36,343 bases of DNA, from positions 1 through 36,343 of IMG/VR virus record IMGVR_UViG_3300022930_000021; one strand, written 5' to 3'. A program made the translations under genes and the position numbers. The stretch's first letter is position 1; every line of letters begins with the position of its first letter. Below are positions 16,835-32,022 of this stretch, one piece after another. This stretch comes from a virus. Lineage: Duplodnaviria; Caudoviricetes. The notes under the pieces were generated by a model. The model had not been told where the DNA came from and made no database searches. It saw nothing but the letters and a program-made list of their open reading frames with translations.

Positions 16835-17128
16835 TTAGCGGTCTTCGTTAGTTACGCCTATAAAGTCTGCTGGCTCGAAATCTTCCTTGTTACCTGACTC
16901 CGATAGAATGCGCTCCTGCTCGATCTCCTCGTCTGTAAGCGGCAGGTAATCGGTATCTACCTCTGTCATATCGCTTACCGGGATATCCTGCAAGTCCTGT
17001 GGTCCCTCATAGCAGTACAAGTCATCGCAACGTGATAGGAACTCCGCAACCTGCTCTTCTGCCATGATGTAACCGTCTGCCTCCATCTCCTTAGCGACTG
17101 AACGTACCAAATCGTATAACTTAATCAT
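16835..17128 (-). CDS. Acidic hypothetical protein
   Basis: Very Asp/Glu-rich, 97 aa, first gene after an early promoter. Confidence 0.7.
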   Translation of the reverse strand: MIKLYDLVRSVAKEMEADGYIMAEEQVAEFLSRCDDLYCYEGPQDLQDIPVSDMTEVDTDYLPLTDEEIEQERILSESGNKEDFEPADFIGVTNEDR

Positions 17129-17259: not shown

Positions 17260-17589
17260 TTACCTCCATACCTGCTGGCTTATATCTCTGCTAAGTGCTG
17301 CCTGGTATGCTTCGAACAAAGAAGTAACTGACCTACGGCCCTCCTTAATCGGAGTAGGGAACAGCGGTAGCAACTGCTCACGGCTAGGGATTAGACGCTT
17401 CGGATTCTCGGCGAACCACGGCCCTAGTTGTATGGAGGCGTTTGCCTTTTCCTCATCCGTCGGTGGACGACCTACATAACCTTGGAAAGCGAATATGAAG
17501 TAACGGTTAGAGAAATACTCTGCTCGCTGCTGTGCTGGCATAGCAAGGGCGTAAGTTTCGTCCCTAGTTATCTCTTGGATTGTAGACAT
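17260..17589 (-). CDS. Hypothetical protein
   Basis: 109 aa ORF at the end of the replication operon. Confidence 0.65.
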   Translation of the reverse strand: MSTIQEITRDETYALAMPAQQRAEYFSNRYFIFAFQGYVGRPPTDEEKANASIQLGPWFAENPKRLIPSREQLLPLFPTPIKEGRRSVTSLFEAYQAALSRDISQQVWR

Positions 17590-17590
17590 A

Positions 17591-17923
17591 TTAGTTTAGT
17601 AGAGGGTTATTGAAGTGCTGACTACCTAGACGAGCGTTTACTTTCTGGCTTGTTTCCCGGAGAAATAGATCAGTCTGTTTGCTCTTGTTACTAGCGTTCC
17701 ATATTGCATGGTCTTCTGCTTCCATTTTGTAACCACGGTTCCATCCCATCATCCGATTTACGTCGGGAATTATTGTCATAATGTCCTTTCCGCGTACTGG
17801 AACTCCACCGAGGATTGCCTTGCTTTCGGTTAGGAATGCGTATTGCGCCGCCTCTAACTGCGTTTCGTCAATAGGGATGAACTCATTAGGCCCGTAACCT
17901 GTCTGAACTTTAAAGTAAATCAT
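17591..17923 (-). CDS. Hypothetical protein coupled to the initiator (helicase-loader position)
   Basis: ATGA overlap with the initiator stop; function inferred from position only. Confidence 0.6.
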   Translation of the reverse strand: MIYFKVQTGYGPNEFIPIDETQLEAAQYAFLTESKAILGGVPVRGKDIMTIIPDVNRMMGWNRGYKMEAEDHAIWNASNKSKQTDLFLRETSQKVNARLGSQHFNNPLLN

Positions 17924-18663
17924 GCGATTATTACGTTAGGTGTTTTAGTCTGATGCTTTGCCTTGGCTTTTACGATTGAAGCCTCAAGGCTTGAATACTT
18001 CTCTAGCAGTTGCAGGGGAGTCATTATCGTCGGCATATACTCCATGCGGTTCGTTTTAGGCAAAGTATCTTTTACAATCGCAACAACTCTGTCGAGGCCA
18101 TACCCTGCGATTAAGTCTTTGACAGCCTTCCGTTGGGTCTTATTGCCGTACATTCGTGCCACGGCGGGGTTTATCTTCTTGAATTCATCCAACACTTCGA
18201 TTATTGAAGAAATGGAACTGTCCGCGGACTCGTCCGCTGTATTATCTTCTTTTCTTTTCTTATTTACCCTTTTATAACTCTGGTCACCTGTGGGTGATAC
18301 CTGCCTATCACCTGTGGGTGATACAGTGTCACCTGTAGATGATAGACGGGATGTGCTATCACTTGTGGATGATACCTTCGAGAATGTTACAAGCGGGATA
18401 ATTTCCGACCTGTTTCGACGAGATTCGTCCCTAAACTTACGCTTGATGTACCCAAGGGATTCCAAATTGGTTAGCGAGTTCTGTACAGCCTTTGCTGTCG
18501 ATTTGCACATCTTAGCAAGCGTTTCATTAGACGCTGTGCATTTTTCGTTCTTCAACTTTGTAAACCAGTAGACAATGGCATACACGCGCTCATCAACGGG
18601 CGTTATGTTTTCGTCGGCTATCAACTGATAGGGGATTATCAGGAAATCGGGGTAGCCGTTCAT
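17920..18663 (-). CDS. Phage replication initiator (N-terminal winged HTH; lambda O-like organisation)
   Basis: CTASNETLAKMC...VQNSLTNLESLGYI HTH, repetitive linker VSPTGD, C-terminal TPLQL..KYSSL domain. Confidence 0.8.
   Translation of the reverse strand: MNGYPDFLIIPYQLIADENITPVDERVYAIVYWFTKLKNEKCTASNETLAKMCKSTAKAVQNSLTNLESLGYIKRKFRDESRRNRSEIIPLVTFSKVSSTSDSTSRLSSTGDTVSPTGDRQVSPTGDQSYKRVNKKRKEDNTADESADSSISSIIEVLDEFKKINPAVARMYGNKTQRKAVKDLIAGYGLDRVVAIVKDTLPKTNRMEYMPTIMTPLQLLEKYSSLEASIVKAKAKHQTKTPNVIIA
18240..18375. repeat. Iteron array plus AT-rich tract (putative origin)
   Basis: Four copies of TCACYTGTRGRTGATA within 18282-18375, next to an AT-rich tract at 18240-18278. Confidence 0.8.
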
Positions 18664-18860
18664 TGCTCCATTTCCTTAATCGAGATGAGTACCCTAGCAT
18701 CCTTTAAGTGGAACTCGTCTATGACGGTTTGTATTGCCCCATTGAGATATTCTAGGAATGTATCCTCTGACTTGTTATCAATCGAGAAATTGAATGTTAT
18801 GTCTATCGTCCCCTTCGACTGGCGTTTATCTGTGACCATTGGCTTAGAAATAAAGCCCAT
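18660..18860 (-). CDS. Small protein downstream of the C4-like RNA
   Basis: 66 aa, ATGA-coupled to the initiator; its ATG lies in the base of the RNA stem. Confidence 0.6.
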   Translation of the reverse strand: MGFISKPMVTDKRQSKGTIDITFNFSIDNKSEDTFLEYLNGAIQTVIDEFHLKDARVLISIKEMEQ

Positions 18861-18931
18861 TCATAGGAGCGCGGGTGTGGTCGGGAGTCATCTTCCCGCT
18901 CCTTTCGGAGTCCACGCCCCCATGAATAGGG
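18856..18931 (-). ncRNA. C4-like antisense RNA
   Basis: 16-bp closing stem ATTCATGGGGGCGTGG/CCGCGCTCCTATGAAT, CTCC-GAAA-GGAG, CGGGA-AGATGAC-TCCCG and unpaired ACCACAC; complementary TGTGGT and AGTCATC sites just upstream. Confidence 0.72.
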
Positions 18932-18941
18932 TCTATTAAGC

Positions 18942-19006
18942 GATGACTATTTACCACATACTAATTATACTCCGCAACCTAATCACCTACAATCGACTTA
19001 TCCCCA
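18942..19006 (-). promoter_or_regulatory. Main early promoter, a1/b1-like target sites and inverted GACTTATCCCCA box
   Basis: TTGTAG (18992-18987)-17 nt-TATAAT (18969-18964); TGTGGT 18958-18953; AGTCATC 18948-18942; box 18995-19006. Confidence 0.7.
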
Positions 19007-19011
19007 TGCAA

Positions 19012-19072
19012 GAAAAACCACCCCGATTATTCAAGTTGGAGTGGTTTTACCCAATATACGTTCGCTGGTTGC
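19012..19072 (-). ncRNA. Candidate sRNA B (about 60 nt)
   Basis: Extended -10 TGaTATAAT (19084-19079), a short single-stranded region, then terminator AAAACCACTCC...GGGGTGGTTTTT. Confidence 0.45.
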
Positions 19073-19096
19073 TTCTGCATTATATCACTTAGCAAT

Positions 19097-19184
19097 ACAG
19101 AAACAACACCCCATGTTTAGTGAGGTGTTGCGTCCGTATGTATTTTAACGACGCGAGCAAACGATGAAATCCTCAAGCGTCGCT
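19097..19184 (-). ncRNA. Candidate sRNA A (about 90 nt)
   Basis: TATACT (19195-19190), 5' hairpin AGCGACGC/GCGTCGTT, linker, 11-bp hairpin GCAACACCTCA/TGGGGTGTTGT and a short T tract. Confidence 0.4.
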
Positions 19185-19197
19185 ATGTGAGTATAAA

Positions 19198-19398
19198 CTA
19201 CTTTCCGCCTTTACCGCAATATCGACAGAACCGTCTATCACATTGATCTTGGCTAGCATCAGGCCAGTAGGGAGGTTTCTTGGCTACTCTCACATGCCAC
19301 CAGTCCCATACGAACTGCCTAATAAAATCACCCGTAGCATAGTATACGAAGGTCGGCCACTGAATGTATCGAAAGTAATTCCATCGTTTGTTTTCCAT
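19198..19398 (-). CDS. Small leaderless protein with a C-terminal Cys motif
   Basis: TGcTATAAT-6 nt-ATG 19398 gives MENKRWNYF...CDRRFCRYCGK. Confidence 0.55.
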   Translation of the reverse strand: MENKRWNYFRYIQWPTFVYYATGDFIRQFVWDWWHVRVAKKPPYWPDASQDQCDRRFCRYCGKGGK

Positions 19399-19544
19399 TT
19401 GTTGATTATAGCATAAACGCAAATCCCACTTCGGGGGAAGCGGGATTGGTAGGTATGATTGAAAATGTCTTTGTGAGCATGGCCCCTGTGCATCGGGGCA
19501 TTTACAGTATACAATTTTACTAGACAAGGCACAAATACTATCCT

Positions 19545-19682
19545 ATGAAACCAGACACTATGTCCGCTGAGGAGTTCGGCAGGCTCATGCAACTCGCCCA
19601 TGGCGAACTGCCTGAGTCCGAGATGACCTCACAAGAAATGATGCTCACGCATCCCCAAGGGTACTTTTCCTTCCATGGTTAA
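19545..19682 (+). CDS. Small hypothetical protein (45 aa), not in the ORF track
   Basis: MKPDTMSAEEFGRLMQLAHGELPESEMTSQEMMLTHPQGYFSFHG, followed by a terminator. Confidence 0.5.
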   Translation: MKPDTMSAEEFGRLMQLAHGELPESEMTSQEMMLTHPQGYFSFHG

Positions 19683-19691
19683 TACCGCACG

Positions 19692-19720
19692 GCACCACCT
19701 AAGACGTGGTGCTTTCTCTT
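19692..19720 (+). terminator. Intrinsic terminator
   Basis: GCACCAC-CTAAGAC-GTGGTGC-TTTCTCTT. Confidence 0.7.
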
Positions 19721-19741
19721 GTGTAGGAGTATAATTAGGAC

Positions 19742-19924
19742 ATGAGAAACCCATTCAAGGCAGTACGACAGGCGAATGCTCGCCTCAATATGGCAACGGA
19801 TCGAAAGATTGCAGCCGATACTCAGCTGGCAAATTCCCTCAAGGACAAGTCCAATAGGAAAGTAGCCATGATGTCCTTTAAGGCACCTAAGCGCTCTTCC
19901 AATGGACTCGGCGTAGGTATGTAG
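19742..19924 (+). CDS. Small basic leaderless protein
   Basis: TATAAT 19730-19735, 6 nt before the ATG. Confidence 0.6.
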   Translation: MRNPFKAVRQANARLNMATDRKIAADTQLANSLKDKSNRKVAMMSFKAPKRSSNGLGVGM

Positions 19925-19960
19925 TATAATCAGGTAGTTACTAGAAGTAACATAACGACC

Positions 19961-20167
19961 ATGTCAACAGTAAATTTCGCACCAGGCACGGAGATCGAGG
20001 TAAAGGGCAAGAAGTACACGACCCAGACCGGCATCAACGTAACGGACAATACCGAGTCCCGCCAGACGGAGGACGGTATCAAGCGCTTCGACTCCGACGG
20101 CAACGAGGTTGACGAGAACGGAGAGAAAGTACATCGCAACATCCTCACCGGCAAGAAGACTAAGTAA
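19961..20167 (+). CDS. Small hypothetical protein
   Basis: 68 aa; TATAAT 19925-19930 upstream; C-ending codon bias like the capsid gene. Confidence 0.7.
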   Translation: MSTVNFAPGTEIEVKGKKYTTQTGINVTDNTESRQTEDGIKRFDSDGNEVDENGEKVHRNILTGKKTK

Positions 20168-27476: not shown

Positions 27477-27831
27477 CATTAGGCATTACTATGTCGACGT
27501 TTTTGACACGGACATAGTTCTTGTTAGTTGTGAAATTAAAGATATTCTAGATGAACTATCAACCATCCTCCCTAAGGCGAGGCTTGATTTGATTGAATCG
27601 TCTTTGAAAGAACAGCCGATTGAGGCGTTAACCAAGGCGCGACAATACCCAATGGATGGTGGAGGTTCTGTGATATGGATCGGCCCGGAACAACCATTAA
27701 GTGTTCTTGTACATGAACTAATGCACGCTACATTCCATTTGCTGGAAGTTAAAGGTGTTAAATATTGCTCTGATTCCGAAGAGGTATACACATATTTAAT
27801 GGAGAGTATGTTTAAGGGACTTACTAGATGA
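27451..27831 (+). CDS. Small HExxH (zincin-like) phage protein
   Basis: LVHELMHATFHLL...SEEVYTYLME; AT-richer than its neighbours. Confidence 0.65.
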   Translation: MKKKTKGNSIRHYYVDVFDTDIVLVSCEIKDILDELSTILPKARLDLIESSLKEQPIEALTKARQYPMDGGGSVIWIGPEQPLSVLVHELMHATFHLLEVKGVKYCSDSEEVYTYLMESMFKGLTR

Positions 27832-28775
27832 ACCAGCCACTTAAGGTTTTACACATCAATCGCCCTAAAGACCTTTGGGTTGGCGGCGATTATGTGAAAC
27901 TCGAGAAGATAGTGGAAGGACTCACCAAGTTAGGCGTCGAGATAGACATATCCGAGAAGCCGCTGATTACCCCGGCAATCCTGATAAACCAGTACGACAT
28001 CGTCCATATCTGGAACTTCTCCATGCCATGGGCAAAGTACGCTGTCTGGATGGCAGGAAAGTGGAAGAAGAAGATAGTCTGCTCGATGACCTACTACAAC
28101 ACCGAGGCATACATACCGTACAACCTACAGCAGGTGATGATGGATCACCTGGATGCCGCCATATACGAGACTGAGGGCGAGATAGACCGTGCCAGGAAGA
28201 ACCTAAAGGTGAATAACTCCTACATCGTCCCAAACGGCGTAGATTCGTGGTGGTTCGAGCCAGATGATGGCAAAGTACCTTTCGAGCGCTATGTACTCAC
28301 AGTGGGGCGTATAGAGCCTAATAAGGGGCAATTAGAGACCGCTAAGGCATGCCGTGAACTAGGAATAACCTATGTTTGCATCGGAGACGTGGCTGATGCC
28401 GAATATTCCAACAAATGCCTAGCCGAGGGTGCCATGATGTACCCTTCGATGCCGCAAGAGAAACTGAAGCGTTGGTATAAGAACTGTGCCGTGTACGTTC
28501 AGGCATCCCTCAGCGAGACGTGGGGCATGGCAGTGGATGAAGCCGGAACCCAAGGCGTGCCTATCGTAGTATCCACAGGCTTCGAGAGACAGGACATTCC
28601 CGGAGCGATATACTGTGTACATGCAGAACAACAATCTATCACCGATTCGATACGCCACGCCCTTTCTCAAGAGAGAGACACGCGGTTCCAGGAAAGCCTC
28701 AAAGAAAGGACTTGGGATAAGTGCGCTGAGGAAATCCTCAAAATCTACGAAGAGATAACCAAAACAAATGAATAG
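27828..28775 (+). CDS. Glycosyltransferase, GT4 (GT-B fold)
   Basis: GGD, YDIVHI, VPNGVD, VGRIEPNKGQ, SLSETWGMAVDEA...GVPIVVS. Confidence 0.92.
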   Translation: MNQPLKVLHINRPKDLWVGGDYVKLEKIVEGLTKLGVEIDISEKPLITPAILINQYDIVHIWNFSMPWAKYAVWMAGKWKKKIVCSMTYYNTEAYIPYNLQQVMMDHLDAAIYETEGEIDRARKNLKVNNSYIVPNGVDSWWFEPDDGKVPFERYVLTVGRIEPNKGQLETAKACRELGITYVCIGDVADAEYSNKCLAEGAMMYPSMPQEKLKRWYKNCAVYVQASLSETWGMAVDEAGTQGVPIVVSTGFERQDIPGAIYCVHAEQQSITDSIRHALSQERDTRFQESLKERTWDKCAEEILKIYEEITKTNE

Positions 28776-29415
28776 ACGATTTAGCATAATCCTGCCTACG
28801 TTCAATCGTCCGCAGTTGATTAATAGGGCGATACAGGCAGTACTCGATCAGGATTACGACAACTGGGAACTCATCATCCAGAATGGCGGTGATCCGCTTA
28901 CGCTTCCATATAAGGACCAGCGTATAAAACTCTACAACGAGCCAGACGCCGGCATCACGGATGCTATGAATAAGGGTATGGCCAAGGCAACTGGCGATAT
29001 ATTCTGCTGGTGTAACGATGACGACGAGATCAACCAAGAGACACTGTCGTGGGTCAATAAGAACCTGACTAATGAGTGGGGCTATGGAATCATCCTCATG
29101 ACTAACGGCACGCAGTCGTTCGAATGGGGCAACGTAAGCGATACGGCTACGTTCGAGCAGTTGGTCAACGGTAACTTCGTACCACAGCCGTCCGTCTATT
29201 GGACTCGCAAGGCATATGAGTCAGTAGGTGAGATGGACATGGAACACGACCTGACATCGGACTATGAGTACTGGATGCGACTATGGAAGTGGCAGGAACC
29301 ACAGAAGTTCGATCGTCTAATGGCTATATATCACATGCACGCAGGACAGATTACCCAGACTAGGACTGAAGAGCAGATGTCACAAGCCCGAAAGTCAGCC
29401 GCTAAATACAAATAG
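28768..29415 (+). CDS. Glycosyltransferase, GT2 (GT-A fold)
   Basis: SIILPTFNR, AMNKG...ATGD, NDDD (DxD), QPSVY, SDYEYWMR. Confidence 0.92.
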   Translation: MNRRFSIILPTFNRPQLINRAIQAVLDQDYDNWELIIQNGGDPLTLPYKDQRIKLYNEPDAGITDAMNKGMAKATGDIFCWCNDDDEINQETLSWVNKNLTNEWGYGIILMTNGTQSFEWGNVSDTATFEQLVNGNFVPQPSVYWTRKAYESVGEMDMEHDLTSDYEYWMRLWKWQEPQKFDRLMAIYHMHAGQITQTRTEEQMSQARKSAAKYK

Positions 29416-29985
29416 ATGGAATACAAGATATTCGACAAACCGCATAGCCACGACATAGAGTTTTATAAGGACAGGGAGATGGCTGACCACATCAACCAGC
29501 CTGACCACAAACCACGCCTATTGAAGGTATTAGACAAAGTATCGGCAATCTTAAAGGACAACCCTGACTATTCAGTATCTGACCTCGGATGCGGCAATGG
29601 CGGCCTTATAGAACTCATAACGACGCAGAACAAGTGGGGATATGACCTACAGCCTAGCAACGTAGAGGATGCTAAGCGCAAGGGACGTAATGTAGAGTTT
29701 AAGGACTTCGTTAACGAGTCTGATGCTAAGTTCGGTGACATCGTGATAATGACTGAGACTTTAGAGCACCTAGTAGACCCTCATGGATTCCTTAAGCGAC
29801 TACACGATTCGGGCGTGAAGCATGTAGTAGCATCATGCCCTAATTACGAGAACCTGGACTTTCATGCGCCCTTCCACTTATGGATATGGAGTGATTCTAG
29901 CTTTGCAGATATGTTCAATGCAGCAGGATGGACGGTTACTAGCCACGAATTGGAGTTCTTCCAGTTCGTAACGGTACAACGATGA
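29416..29985 (+). CDS. Class I SAM-dependent methyltransferase
   Basis: DLGCGNG, GYD, ETLEHLVDP, terminal AAGW. Confidence 0.9.
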   Translation: MEYKIFDKPHSHDIEFYKDREMADHINQPDHKPRLLKVLDKVSAILKDNPDYSVSDLGCGNGGLIELITTQNKWGYDLQPSNVEDAKRKGRNVEFKDFVNESDAKFGDIVIMTETLEHLVDPHGFLKRLHDSGVKHVVASCPNYENLDFHAPFHLWIWSDSSFADMFNAAGWTVTSHELEFFQFVTVQR

Positions 29986-30875
29986 AAAGAGTATTAATAA
30001 CTGGCGGGGAAGGGTTCGTAGGTCGTGCGTTTAGGCGTTACTTTGCAACCCTAAAACCACCACACAAGGTAAGGACGGTGATTATCGACATAAAGGGTGA
30101 TGGTATGGACTGCCGAAAGTTCTTCAAGTCGGTAACAAATACTAAATATGACCTCGTAATCCATCTCGCTGCCATTGTCGGCGGGCGAATGACTATTGAA
30201 GGAAACCCGATATCAGTCGCTACAGACCTATCCATAGACGCTGAGATGTTCAATTGGGCATTACGCACTAAGCAACCTCGAGTAGTCTATTTCTCTAGCA
30301 GTGCCGCGTACCCTACTTTCTTGCAAGACCCTGTGATGTACCCTCAAAGAATACTCAAGGAGGACGATATAGATTTAGAAATGATAAGCAACCCTGACAT
30401 GACCTATGGTTGGGCTAAGTTAACGGGTGAGATGCTGGCTGAGTATGCTCGAAAGTCAGGTATAGCCGTTCATGTATTCAGACCGTTCTCTGGTTATGGA
30501 GAAGACCAAGACCTCGACTACCCTTTTCCATCATTCATAAAACGAGCAAAGGATAAAGTGGATGAGTTCGAGATATGGGGTGACGGTAATCAGGTCCGTG
30601 ACTTCATTCACATAGACGACATAGTAGGAGCGGTCATGAAGGCAGTAGAAATTGATATACAGGAGCCCATCAACCTCGGTTCAGGCGTTGCTACGTCGTT
30701 TAATGAACTAGCAGAGAAGGTGATGGATATATCAGGCCATAAAGTACCTATAGTACATCGACTAGAGAAGCCAATAGGCGTACAATATAGGGTATCGGAC
30801 AACTCTAAGATGCTTAAGTTTTACACTCCAAAGATTTCACTCGAAGAAGGTATCAGACGCTCACTAAATGCCTAA
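29982..30875 (+). CDS. NAD-dependent nucleotide-sugar epimerase/dehydratase (extended SDR)
   Basis: TGGEGFVG, IHLAA, SSSAAY, YGWAK (YxxxK), GDGNQVRDFIHIDD. Confidence 0.95.
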   Translation: MKRVLITGGEGFVGRAFRRYFATLKPPHKVRTVIIDIKGDGMDCRKFFKSVTNTKYDLVIHLAAIVGGRMTIEGNPISVATDLSIDAEMFNWALRTKQPRVVYFSSSAAYPTFLQDPVMYPQRILKEDDIDLEMISNPDMTYGWAKLTGEMLAEYARKSGIAVHVFRPFSGYGEDQDLDYPFPSFIKRAKDKVDEFEIWGDGNQVRDFIHIDDIVGAVMKAVEIDIQEPINLGSGVATSFNELAEKVMDISGHKVPIVHRLEKPIGVQYRVSDNSKMLKFYTPKISLEEGIRRSLNA

Positions 30876-32022
30876 GAAACGAATTGCACTTATCGGTACT
30901 GATTGGAACGCTAACTCATATAGGCGTCTAAACAACGTACCCGGGGCTATTTCCACTTATCGCCTCATATATCCCATGAGATTCCTGTCGGAATACTACG
31001 ATATCCGCTATTACGGATCTGATTTCGTGCCAAAGGACGGCATATCGACCGAGGAATTCTATGAGAACCTGTTCAACGACTACGATTTGGTCATTTCCAA
31101 GGTAACTGACAACCCGCAAGCAGCAGCGATGCTTCGTTTCTTCGCGACTCGCAATAATGTTCCCCTAGTCGTTGATATAGACGATAATATATGGGAACTA
31201 AAGCCAGATCAGCCTGGATATAAGGCATATGAGAAGGGAGGACAGACGTTAGCGATAGCATCTACCTATGTTTCCCTTGCTGATGCGGTGTTTTGCTCTA
31301 CGAAACCACTCGCTGAGTACATACAAAAGCGCATTAAGGCGGTATTCAACGAAGATAAGAATACGTTCGTACTACCTAACTGCGTAGATACTTCTGATTA
31401 CTCTCAATACGAACGCGCTCAGCGTGATCCTTCGACTATAGTGATAGGTTGGCAGGGATCAACGACCCATCACGAGGACCTACGCATAGCGATGCCGGCA
31501 ATTAATCGCCTGTTGGTTGAATACCCAAACCTATATTTGGAACTATTAGGAGGCGTATCGGACGAGATGGTAGCAGACCTATTCAATGGAATGGACGAAA
31601 CAGTACTTGATAGGGTTATGACTAAGGGCGGGGTTCCAGCATTTGATACGTTTCCCCATTTGTTGTCTCAGCAGGCATGGGATATAGCGATTGCGCCGCT
31701 TACTGATGAGCCATTCAATCATGCAAAGAGCCATATCAAATGGATGGAATACGCCATGTTCGGCATACCGTGCGTAGCGTCTAAGGTATATCCGTATTAC
31801 ATGCCAGTACAAGACGTCCATACTATCAATGACGGCGAGACAGGAGTCCTAGCTGGACCGGATCAATGGTATAACAAGTTAAAGTACTTGATTGATGAAC
31901 CGACTAAGGCAGATACTATAGGAAGAAACGCTAAAGAATACGTCTCTAACCATTGGCACATGAGAAAACACGCGCATAAGTGGAAGGAAGCGATTGATTC
32001 GTTGATAAATACGCAGGGGTAA
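30868..32022 (+). CDS. Glycosyltransferase, GT4-like
   Basis: YRL..P, VDIDD, LPN.VD, IGWQGSTTH, DIAIAPL...KSHIKWMEY...P.VAS. Confidence 0.85.
   Translation: MPKKRIALIGTDWNANSYRRLNNVPGAISTYRLIYPMRFLSEYYDIRYYGSDFVPKDGISTEEFYENLFNDYDLVISKVTDNPQAAAMLRFFATRNNVPLVVDIDDNIWELKPDQPGYKAYEKGGQTLAIASTYVSLADAVFCSTKPLAEYIQKRIKAVFNEDKNTFVLPNCVDTSDYSQYERAQRDPSTIVIGWQGSTTHHEDLRIAMPAINRLLVEYPNLYLELLGGVSDEMVADLFNGMDETVLDRVMTKGGVPAFDTFPHLLSQQAWDIAIAPLTDEPFNHAKSHIKWMEYAMFGIPCVASKVYPYYMPVQDVHTINDGETGVLAGPDQWYNKLKYLIDEPTKADTIGRNAKEYVSNHWHMRKHAHKWKEAIDSLINTQG

Follow-up and report, generated by a model that had tools for sequence, protein, structure and literature searches.

The DNA analysed here, referred to as the window, is a 36-kb virus record (36,343 nucleotides) estimated to be 73% complete. 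Terminase, portal, capsid and lysis genes lie on its plus strand, and an early operon lies on the minus strand. Both ends of the record interrupt plus-strand frames of the structural region, and therefore both module junctions are present. The subject of this report is a structured leader that stands first in the minus-strand early operon and is followed by an orphan ORF and then by the replication initiator gene, an arrangement already recognized in an earlier note on this DNA. The orphan ORF (18660..18860, minus strand) codes for 66 aa if it starts at ATG 18860 and for 59 aa if it starts at ATG 18839, and its stop codon overlaps the initiator ATG. Family and relative searches with this ORF found none. 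A likeness by eye to an ORF of locus L049 gained no support from BLASTP and was therefore not used to fix the start codon. The initiator (17920..18663, minus strand) is a lambda-O/DnaD-like protein with an HTH_36 domain (PHROG 428, E 1e-11; PF13730), and a search with it gave 82 matches, itself included. Four 20-nt direct repeats within the initiator gene (18281..18375, unstranded) are likely origin iterons, a role that we assume from lambda O. A search for relatives of a downstream gene of 110 aa found none.

The host is probably a Patescibacterium. One relative of the initiator is named from Ca. Pacebacteria and another lies within a Patescibacteria MAG, while two others fall in bins of different groups. 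Shine-Dalgarno-like motifs are found upstream of 3 of the 42 window genes and are rare in 9 of the 10 records examined. Among the structural genes (27828-32022), three glycosyltransferases are clustered with a methyltransferase and an epimerase, possibly for virion or DNA glycosylation, and a similar epimerase is present in record G419. Among the related phages, records were noticed with GroEL, with an RtcB ligase and with a seven-gene tRNA array (L275:1341-2798, L266:12015-13172, L078:4-561).

Promoter, boxes and fold of the leader

The predicted leader promoter (18964..18992, minus strand) consists of TTGTAG (18992-18987), a 17-nt spacer and TATAAT (18969-18964), and transcription is estimated to start near 18959-18957. 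This site had been called a consensus promoter, which is true of the perfect -10 box; the -35 box matches at only 3 of 6 positions, and the site is absent from the list of the consensus scanner. The GGAGTATAATTAG of the promoter recurs at a divergent site (19726). A terminator-like hairpin (19103..19131, minus strand) is located upstream of the promoter, and TTATCCCCA (18998..19006, plus strand), which we take to be DnaA-box-like, is found immediately upstream of the -35 box. DnaA-box-like motifs of the form TTATCC[AC]CA are found in or near intergenic stretches at 18998, 17204, 13215, 12798 and 9924. Two of these five are immediately upstream of promoter-like sites, and such motifs precede promoters in many related loci too. 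Two hairpins were also noticed by eye between the divergent operons (19013-19047 and 19403-19452), one of which resembles a two-way terminator in its flanking A and T runs.

The promoter is followed by two boxes, TGTGGT (a1, 18953..18958) and AGTCATC (b1, 18942..18948), which are present on the minus strand at 18958-18942 with the 4-nt spacing previously described. Past the boxes, the minus strand of 18856..18930 is predicted to form a three-way RNA fold of 75 nt with a free energy of -44.7 kcal/mol (z -7.72). None of 200 shuffles folds as well, and the opposite strand reaches -31.4 kcal/mol (z -2.7). The fold has a closing stem (18930-18912 with 18874-18856), a GAAA hairpin (18910-18899), a hairpin III (18898-18882) with the predicted loop AGAUGAC, and an unpaired junction strand ACCACAC (18881-18875). 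A closing stem had been expected with 16 bp; it is predicted here with 19 pairs, G-U pairs included. The b' sequence GAUGACU (18886..18892) in the loop of hairpin III and the a' sequence ACCACA (18876..18881) in the junction are exact complements of b1 and a1 with the same 4-nt spacing, in agreement with the GAAA-capped hairpin and the exposed complements of the earlier note.

The window contains two exact matches to TGTGGT-N4-AGTCATC, and these are this pair only. A nested match of 7 + 6 nt to the RNA interior occurs in 3 of 20,000 leader shuffles and in 36 of 24,208 genome windows, with 6 of these 36 being the real site. The element is free of variants in the one DNA run, which is possibly the source. 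Matches of 7 + 6 nt are also found at a few other places in the genome. One lies in the ORF 16835-17128, on the coding strand (16998-17052), where GCGATGACT is followed by ACCACA in the b'-then-a' order of the leader RNA. The two are 9-nt and 6-nt complements of the boxes and adjoin a 12-nt repeat of the spacer of the leader promoter. This match could be a decoy or chance.

The closing stem is followed by a U-rich tail (18846..18855, minus strand) with 6 T in the first 8 nt, which is a possible terminator tail. It is missing from the list of the terminator scan because the "loop" would be the whole junction. ATG 18860 is located inside the closing stem and the in-frame ATG 18839 is located 17 nt past it, and the two are equally plausible start codons. 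The burial of the ORF's ATG in the stem, as formerly proposed, thus applies to the first and not to the second. The RNA also holds an AGGAG and an AUG that open a frame of 15 codons (18844-18889, minus strand) with its stop 4 nt before ATG 18839. This frame, starting from 18889, was set aside as probably irrelevant given that such a motif precedes only the 3 of 42 window genes mentioned above.

Matched change of box and loop in related loci

Searches with the initiator gave 74 loci, of which 16 were left out as contig repeats or for having too little upstream DNA. Five further duplicates were dropped by script, leaving 53 loci with the window's own contig included. Elements were picked by a rule based on hairpin quality alone and blind to complementarity, with thresholds that were set after many loci had been viewed by eye and were revised once. 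This rule gave 30 picks, and 23 of the 53 loci had no qualifying hairpin. A further 30 loci, mostly weak matches, were left out of the cognate test. No close relative of the window's exact RNA was found by a pattern scan for box and loop in 30 loci, or by a stem pattern scan of 120 loci out of an estimated 330 stretches, in which the best-folding 8 of 185 matches were inspected. When 18600-19200 was compared with annotated phages by BLASTN, the 2 matches obtained were due to chance.

The matched change of loop and target that had been anticipated in relatives is borne out by this set. In 25 of the 30 picks, the leader hairpin matches its own upstream 70 nt by 7–11 nt (24 of 29 without the window), compared to 12.6% of 870 non-cognate pairs. 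The mean match is 7.83 nt for cognate and 5.44 nt for non-cognate pairs, and none of 100,000 permutations reaches the cognate mean. The remaining 5 of the 30 picked hairpins have no upstream match. Of 43 control hairpins taken from these loci, 11 reach 7 nt, some of them being second copies of the element. Five loci missed by the rule also show a match when the element is located by eye (L050, L066, L071, L086 and L133). Among the 25 matching elements there are 24 distinct recognition cores, L061 and L077 being near-identical, and cross-matches between elements number 7 in 600. L128 and L131 have a common outer stem, and two changes in the loop are mirrored in the box.

The elements take several forms, from full three-way junctions with two nested boxes (the window, L064, L066 and L081) down to one-loop rods. 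A second nested site of at least 5 nt is found in 10 of 25 elements, compared to 11 of 25 for a non-nested arrangement and 22.7% for non-cognate pairs, so the two-box form is a subset. In 14 of 25 elements, the 45 nt preceding the box contain TATA[AC]T, versus 4.9% of random positions. The initiator begins at most 60 nt away in 14 of 25. The first ATG of a long frame lies 7–20 nt past the stem in 17 of 25 elements and inside the stem in 3 of 25, both being raw counts without a random control. Tails with at least 5 T follow 18 of the 25 elements and 22 of 42 control hairpins, and 7 of the 25 have no such tail. The coding strand folds better in all 25 elements, and likewise in 38 of 43 selected control hairpins.

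Several individual loci were observed in the course of this comparison. Despite their shared outer stem, L128:1410-1475 precedes an HNH-like ORF and L131:1915-1980 precedes an initiator. L076 has two tandem self-matching leaders (2251-2314 and 2401-2475), each with its own -10 box and with different recognition letters, and L075 has a relative of the first. Recognition loops centred on GCAA or GUAA are common (L092, L055, L071, L049, L001, L036 and L093), and the boxes thus contain TTGC or TTAC. L045 (record G416) is the only one in which Shine-Dalgarno motifs are frequent (18 of 36 genes), and it still carries the element; therefore, the design is not tied to hosts that lack them.

These data bear on two explanations that place the function elsewhere than in the leader transcript. 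At the DNA level, the boxes and their complements form a 17-bp interrupted inverted repeat, which might be bound by a protein or extruded as a single-stranded DNA hairpin near the origin-like repeats ~480 bp away. The G-U pairs and the GAAA tetraloop favour an RNA of the coding strand instead, the position just past the -10 box fits a transcript leader, and the unrelated letters of different phages are better explained by base pairing than by recognition by a protein. A DNA-level role is therefore considered very improbable. A counter-transcribed antisense RNA from the opposite strand could also control the leader, as in plasmid replicons, which likewise have a replication initiator downstream, and 9 of 25 elements have a T-rich tail on the opposite strand. 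However, 4 of 25 elements have a TATA[AC]T on the opposite strand in the 80 nt downstream, versus 10% at random, with none in the window, and the same-strand match of box and loop would be left unexplained. We consider this reading to be just as remote as the previous one.

Folding states and a proposed switch

In the final predicted folds, the complement of the box is exposed, with a mean unpaired probability of 0.56 versus 0.18 for the rest of the interior, and it is more unpaired than the interior in 22 of 25 elements (p 2.6e-6). The longest matches of the upstream region to the stem arms average 4.7 and 4.2 nt. The upstream region thus lacks stem-arm pairing, unlike that of an ordinary antiterminator. 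The linker between box and stem is at most 4 nt long in 10 of 25 elements, and in these it is therefore too short for a pseudoknot spanning the whole stem. Taken together, the exposed complement, the lack of stem-arm pairing and the short linkers suit a finished leader that acts on the boxes of new transcripts.

Folding predictions for growing transcripts give two mutually exclusive states. Of the 25 elements, 21 are predicted to form the box-loop helix while nascent and none once finished, although early pairing by a helix of 7–11 nt is partly expected by construction. In the window, transcripts that end anywhere from 18886 to 18872 fold best with this helix, which is displaced from 18868 onward. 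For the full window leader, the box-loop state has -38.2 kcal/mol versus -55.8 kcal/mol for the three-way fold. The predicted accessibility of the region from -20 to +10 barely differs between these folds (0.42 vs 0.40 for the start at 18839; 0.23 vs 0.26 for 18860), while that of the AUG itself differs (0.43 vs 0.67 for 18839; 0.01 vs 0.45 for 18860).

Targets other than the upstream boxes were also sought. Complementarity within 70 nt downstream is at the level of chance (4 of 30, p 0.75), no excess of complement is found within 300 nt downstream (p 0.64), and the box is repeated downstream in 0 of 25 elements. The P1 and P4 controls give downstream matches of 8 and 10 nt. A count over 10 records shows no enrichment of boxes at other gene starts, with a single box core near a start in total, and the idea of an sRNA with many targets was rejected on this count. 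The downstream a2/b2 sites, through which C4 represses and which the comparison with C4 would imply, were not found in the window or its relatives.

Based on these observations, we propose, at slightly better than even confidence, that the leader is a self-antisense RNA switch that would turn down the initiator operon as its own RNA builds up. In the ON state, as modelled, the boxes of a new transcript would pair with the emerging loop and junction and so delay the closing stem. Finished leaders are then predicted to relax to the three-way fold, which is far more stable and leaves loop and junction exposed. In the OFF state, the exposed loops would bind the boxes of newer transcripts in trans, allowing the closing stem to form at once. 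The operon might then be stopped by termination at the U-rich tail, by a covered start region of the first gene, or by both. Since each phage has its own letters, the effect of such an RNA would be confined to its own group of phages. We infer the action in trans and its group specificity by analogy with P1 C4 and P4 CI.

The same folding data could also describe a timer that acts in cis only, in which the box-loop helix delays the stable rod and permits brief read-through or translation with no second RNA involved. This requires only what folding predicts, no downstream or other target was found in the searches above, many relatives are simple one-box rods, and in the long fold of the window the 18839 start region is another possible partner of the boxes. 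On the other hand, pairing with a stem arm would be the simpler design for an antiterminator that acts purely in cis. In these leaders, whose sequences are unrelated, the complement instead stays free in loops and junctions, and the letters differ greatly from one phage to another. We regard the timer as a serious contender that is nonetheless rather unlikely.

The gene content of these phages bears on what the proposed self-antisense switch might be for. As the earlier note had remarked of antirepressor and CI, scans of the window detected neither an antirepressor nor a CI-like repressor, and no integrase either. Two of 26 records have a tyrosine integrase domain, none of 22 has a serine recombinase, and 1 of 22 has an HTH_3 repressor. 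All 6 element-bearing records that are at least 90% complete lack all three, and complete records without the element also lack them. G425 (L133) has an element and also a recombinase and an HTH_3 gene. When 112 of the 206 ORFs of four complete records were compared with PHROG at E 1e-8, none matched an integrase, a repressor, an antirepressor or a partition protein. A carrier state is allowed by this gene content. It is a tentative idea, on balance doubtful, that non-integrating Patescibacteria phages hold a low-copy carrier state and exclude their kin by RNA alone, with the upstream-target-only leader and its hypervariable 7–11-nt box and loop serving as an immunity or incompatibility code in place of a protein repressor. 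The leader is in any case a compact candidate for replication limitation in phages of ultra-small, slow-growing bacteria that have no recognizable repressor or integrase. If the action in trans is true, the set would provide about two dozen natural RNA repressor-target pairs that are nearly orthogonal and do not depend on a Shine-Dalgarno sequence.

Comparison with C4, P4 CI and plasmid antisense RNAs

The likeness to the C4 RNA of P1 and P7 (RF01695) with its a1/b1 sites (RF03163), to which the layout had been assigned, holds at the level of architecture. Both have a closing stem, a tetraloop hairpin, a loop b' and a junction a', with an upstream a1 followed by b1 in nested order and an RNA of ~75–77 nt. 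The annotated order in P1 is a1, b1, C4, a2, b2 and icd, and the pairing partners are the junction for a1 and the loop for b1, as in the window. However, P1 has a2/b2 before its first gene and icd-ant, and the window has neither; the downstream genes are the orphan ORF and the initiator instead, and no icd or antirepressor was detected among the 59 window ORFs scanned. In the window, the box region begins at the predicted transcription start and is separated from the stem by 11 nt, compared to 66 nt in P1. Also unlike C4, the window RNA has a U-rich tail, the genes mostly lack Shine-Dalgarno motifs, and many relatives are one-loop rods.

The comparison with Rfam models that had been suggested gave no match in the window. 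RF01695 has no match at the gathering threshold of 45 bits, at E 5 on 17500-20000 or at E 10 on 18835-18975, and none in the window's own record or 19 related loci, while the P4 CI control scores 74.9 bits. For c4-a1b1 (RF03163), 0 of 23 records exceed the cut-off, and the window has no match at E 1. Whole-Rfam scans of the window gave no match to the c4-2 motif, which we take to be included in Rfam 15. A scan of 151 genomes of the phylum of the Patescibacteria MAG with RF01695 gave 0 matches, and the controls were equally silent. In the reverse direction, a model built from the window RNA alone scores P4 CI at 13.5 bits (E 0.31), as it would any long hairpin, and P1 C4 is not among the matches at E 5. 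Therefore, homology to the C4 clan is not established; the variable recognition letters explain why Rfam misses such forms of the leader.

A distant but true C4/CI homologue, processed by RNase P and repressing a downstream or distant mRNA site, would fit the sizes of the stem, tetraloop hairpin, loop and junction, which equal the Rfam C4 consensus. C4 is processed by RNase P to a stable small RNA, according to PMC5320573. The loop letters TTTCACTAAC of L127 are also found in P1 b', and UGUGGUAA is present in rows of the c4-a1b1 alignment in the supplement of PMC2864571. Against this stand the lack of any C4 or c4-a1b1 match in the window or the 19 related loci and the absence of downstream complement, downstream box repeats and enrichment of boxes at gene starts reported above. 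For downstream targets, this reading is largely refuted, and overall we hold it to be improbable.

The self-antisense switch proposed above finds a functional parallel in P4 CI, which shuts the replication genes by premature termination with seqA upstream and seqC downstream, as described in PMC4825925 and PMC3632133. In both cases, a C4-type fold from the leader of a replication operon pairs, in the window by prediction, with an upstream site of that same leader. The control of replication genes by a C4-type RNA, which the earlier note had set apart from the usual control of icd-ant, is thus already known from P4 CI (PMC4825925). Related systems of this kind include N15 and Gifsy-1 IsrK, and an isrK match in Rfam scans was found only in P4 and not in the window or related loci. 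Unlike in P4, where the control gives a 10-nt match, the window has no downstream seqC-like site, and its leader is much shorter. The satellite P4 also contrasts with the present tailed phage, which has its own head genes, and most of the records have no detectable integrase. A description of this leader was not found in the accessible open full text that was covered, including PMC2864571, PMC5737381, PMC10690425, PMC10085705, PMC10783764, PMC5320573 and bioRxiv 10.64898/2026.09.22.753630; subscription papers and several supplements fall outside this scope.

The missing downstream target is the main difference from C4 and CI. In plasmid replicons such as pIP501 and pMV158, counter-transcribed antisense RNAs regulate the leader of the initiator gene and define sequence-specific groups. 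The phage leader shares with these, by prediction, the RNA-RNA pairing in an initiator leader and the groups defined by sequence. It differs in that the complement is located on the target's own strand, with no evident promoter on the opposite strand. The leader resembles C4 and CI in layout but is not a member of the C4 family, and as a candidate it extends their logic well beyond the Proteobacteria listed for C4 in PMC2864571.
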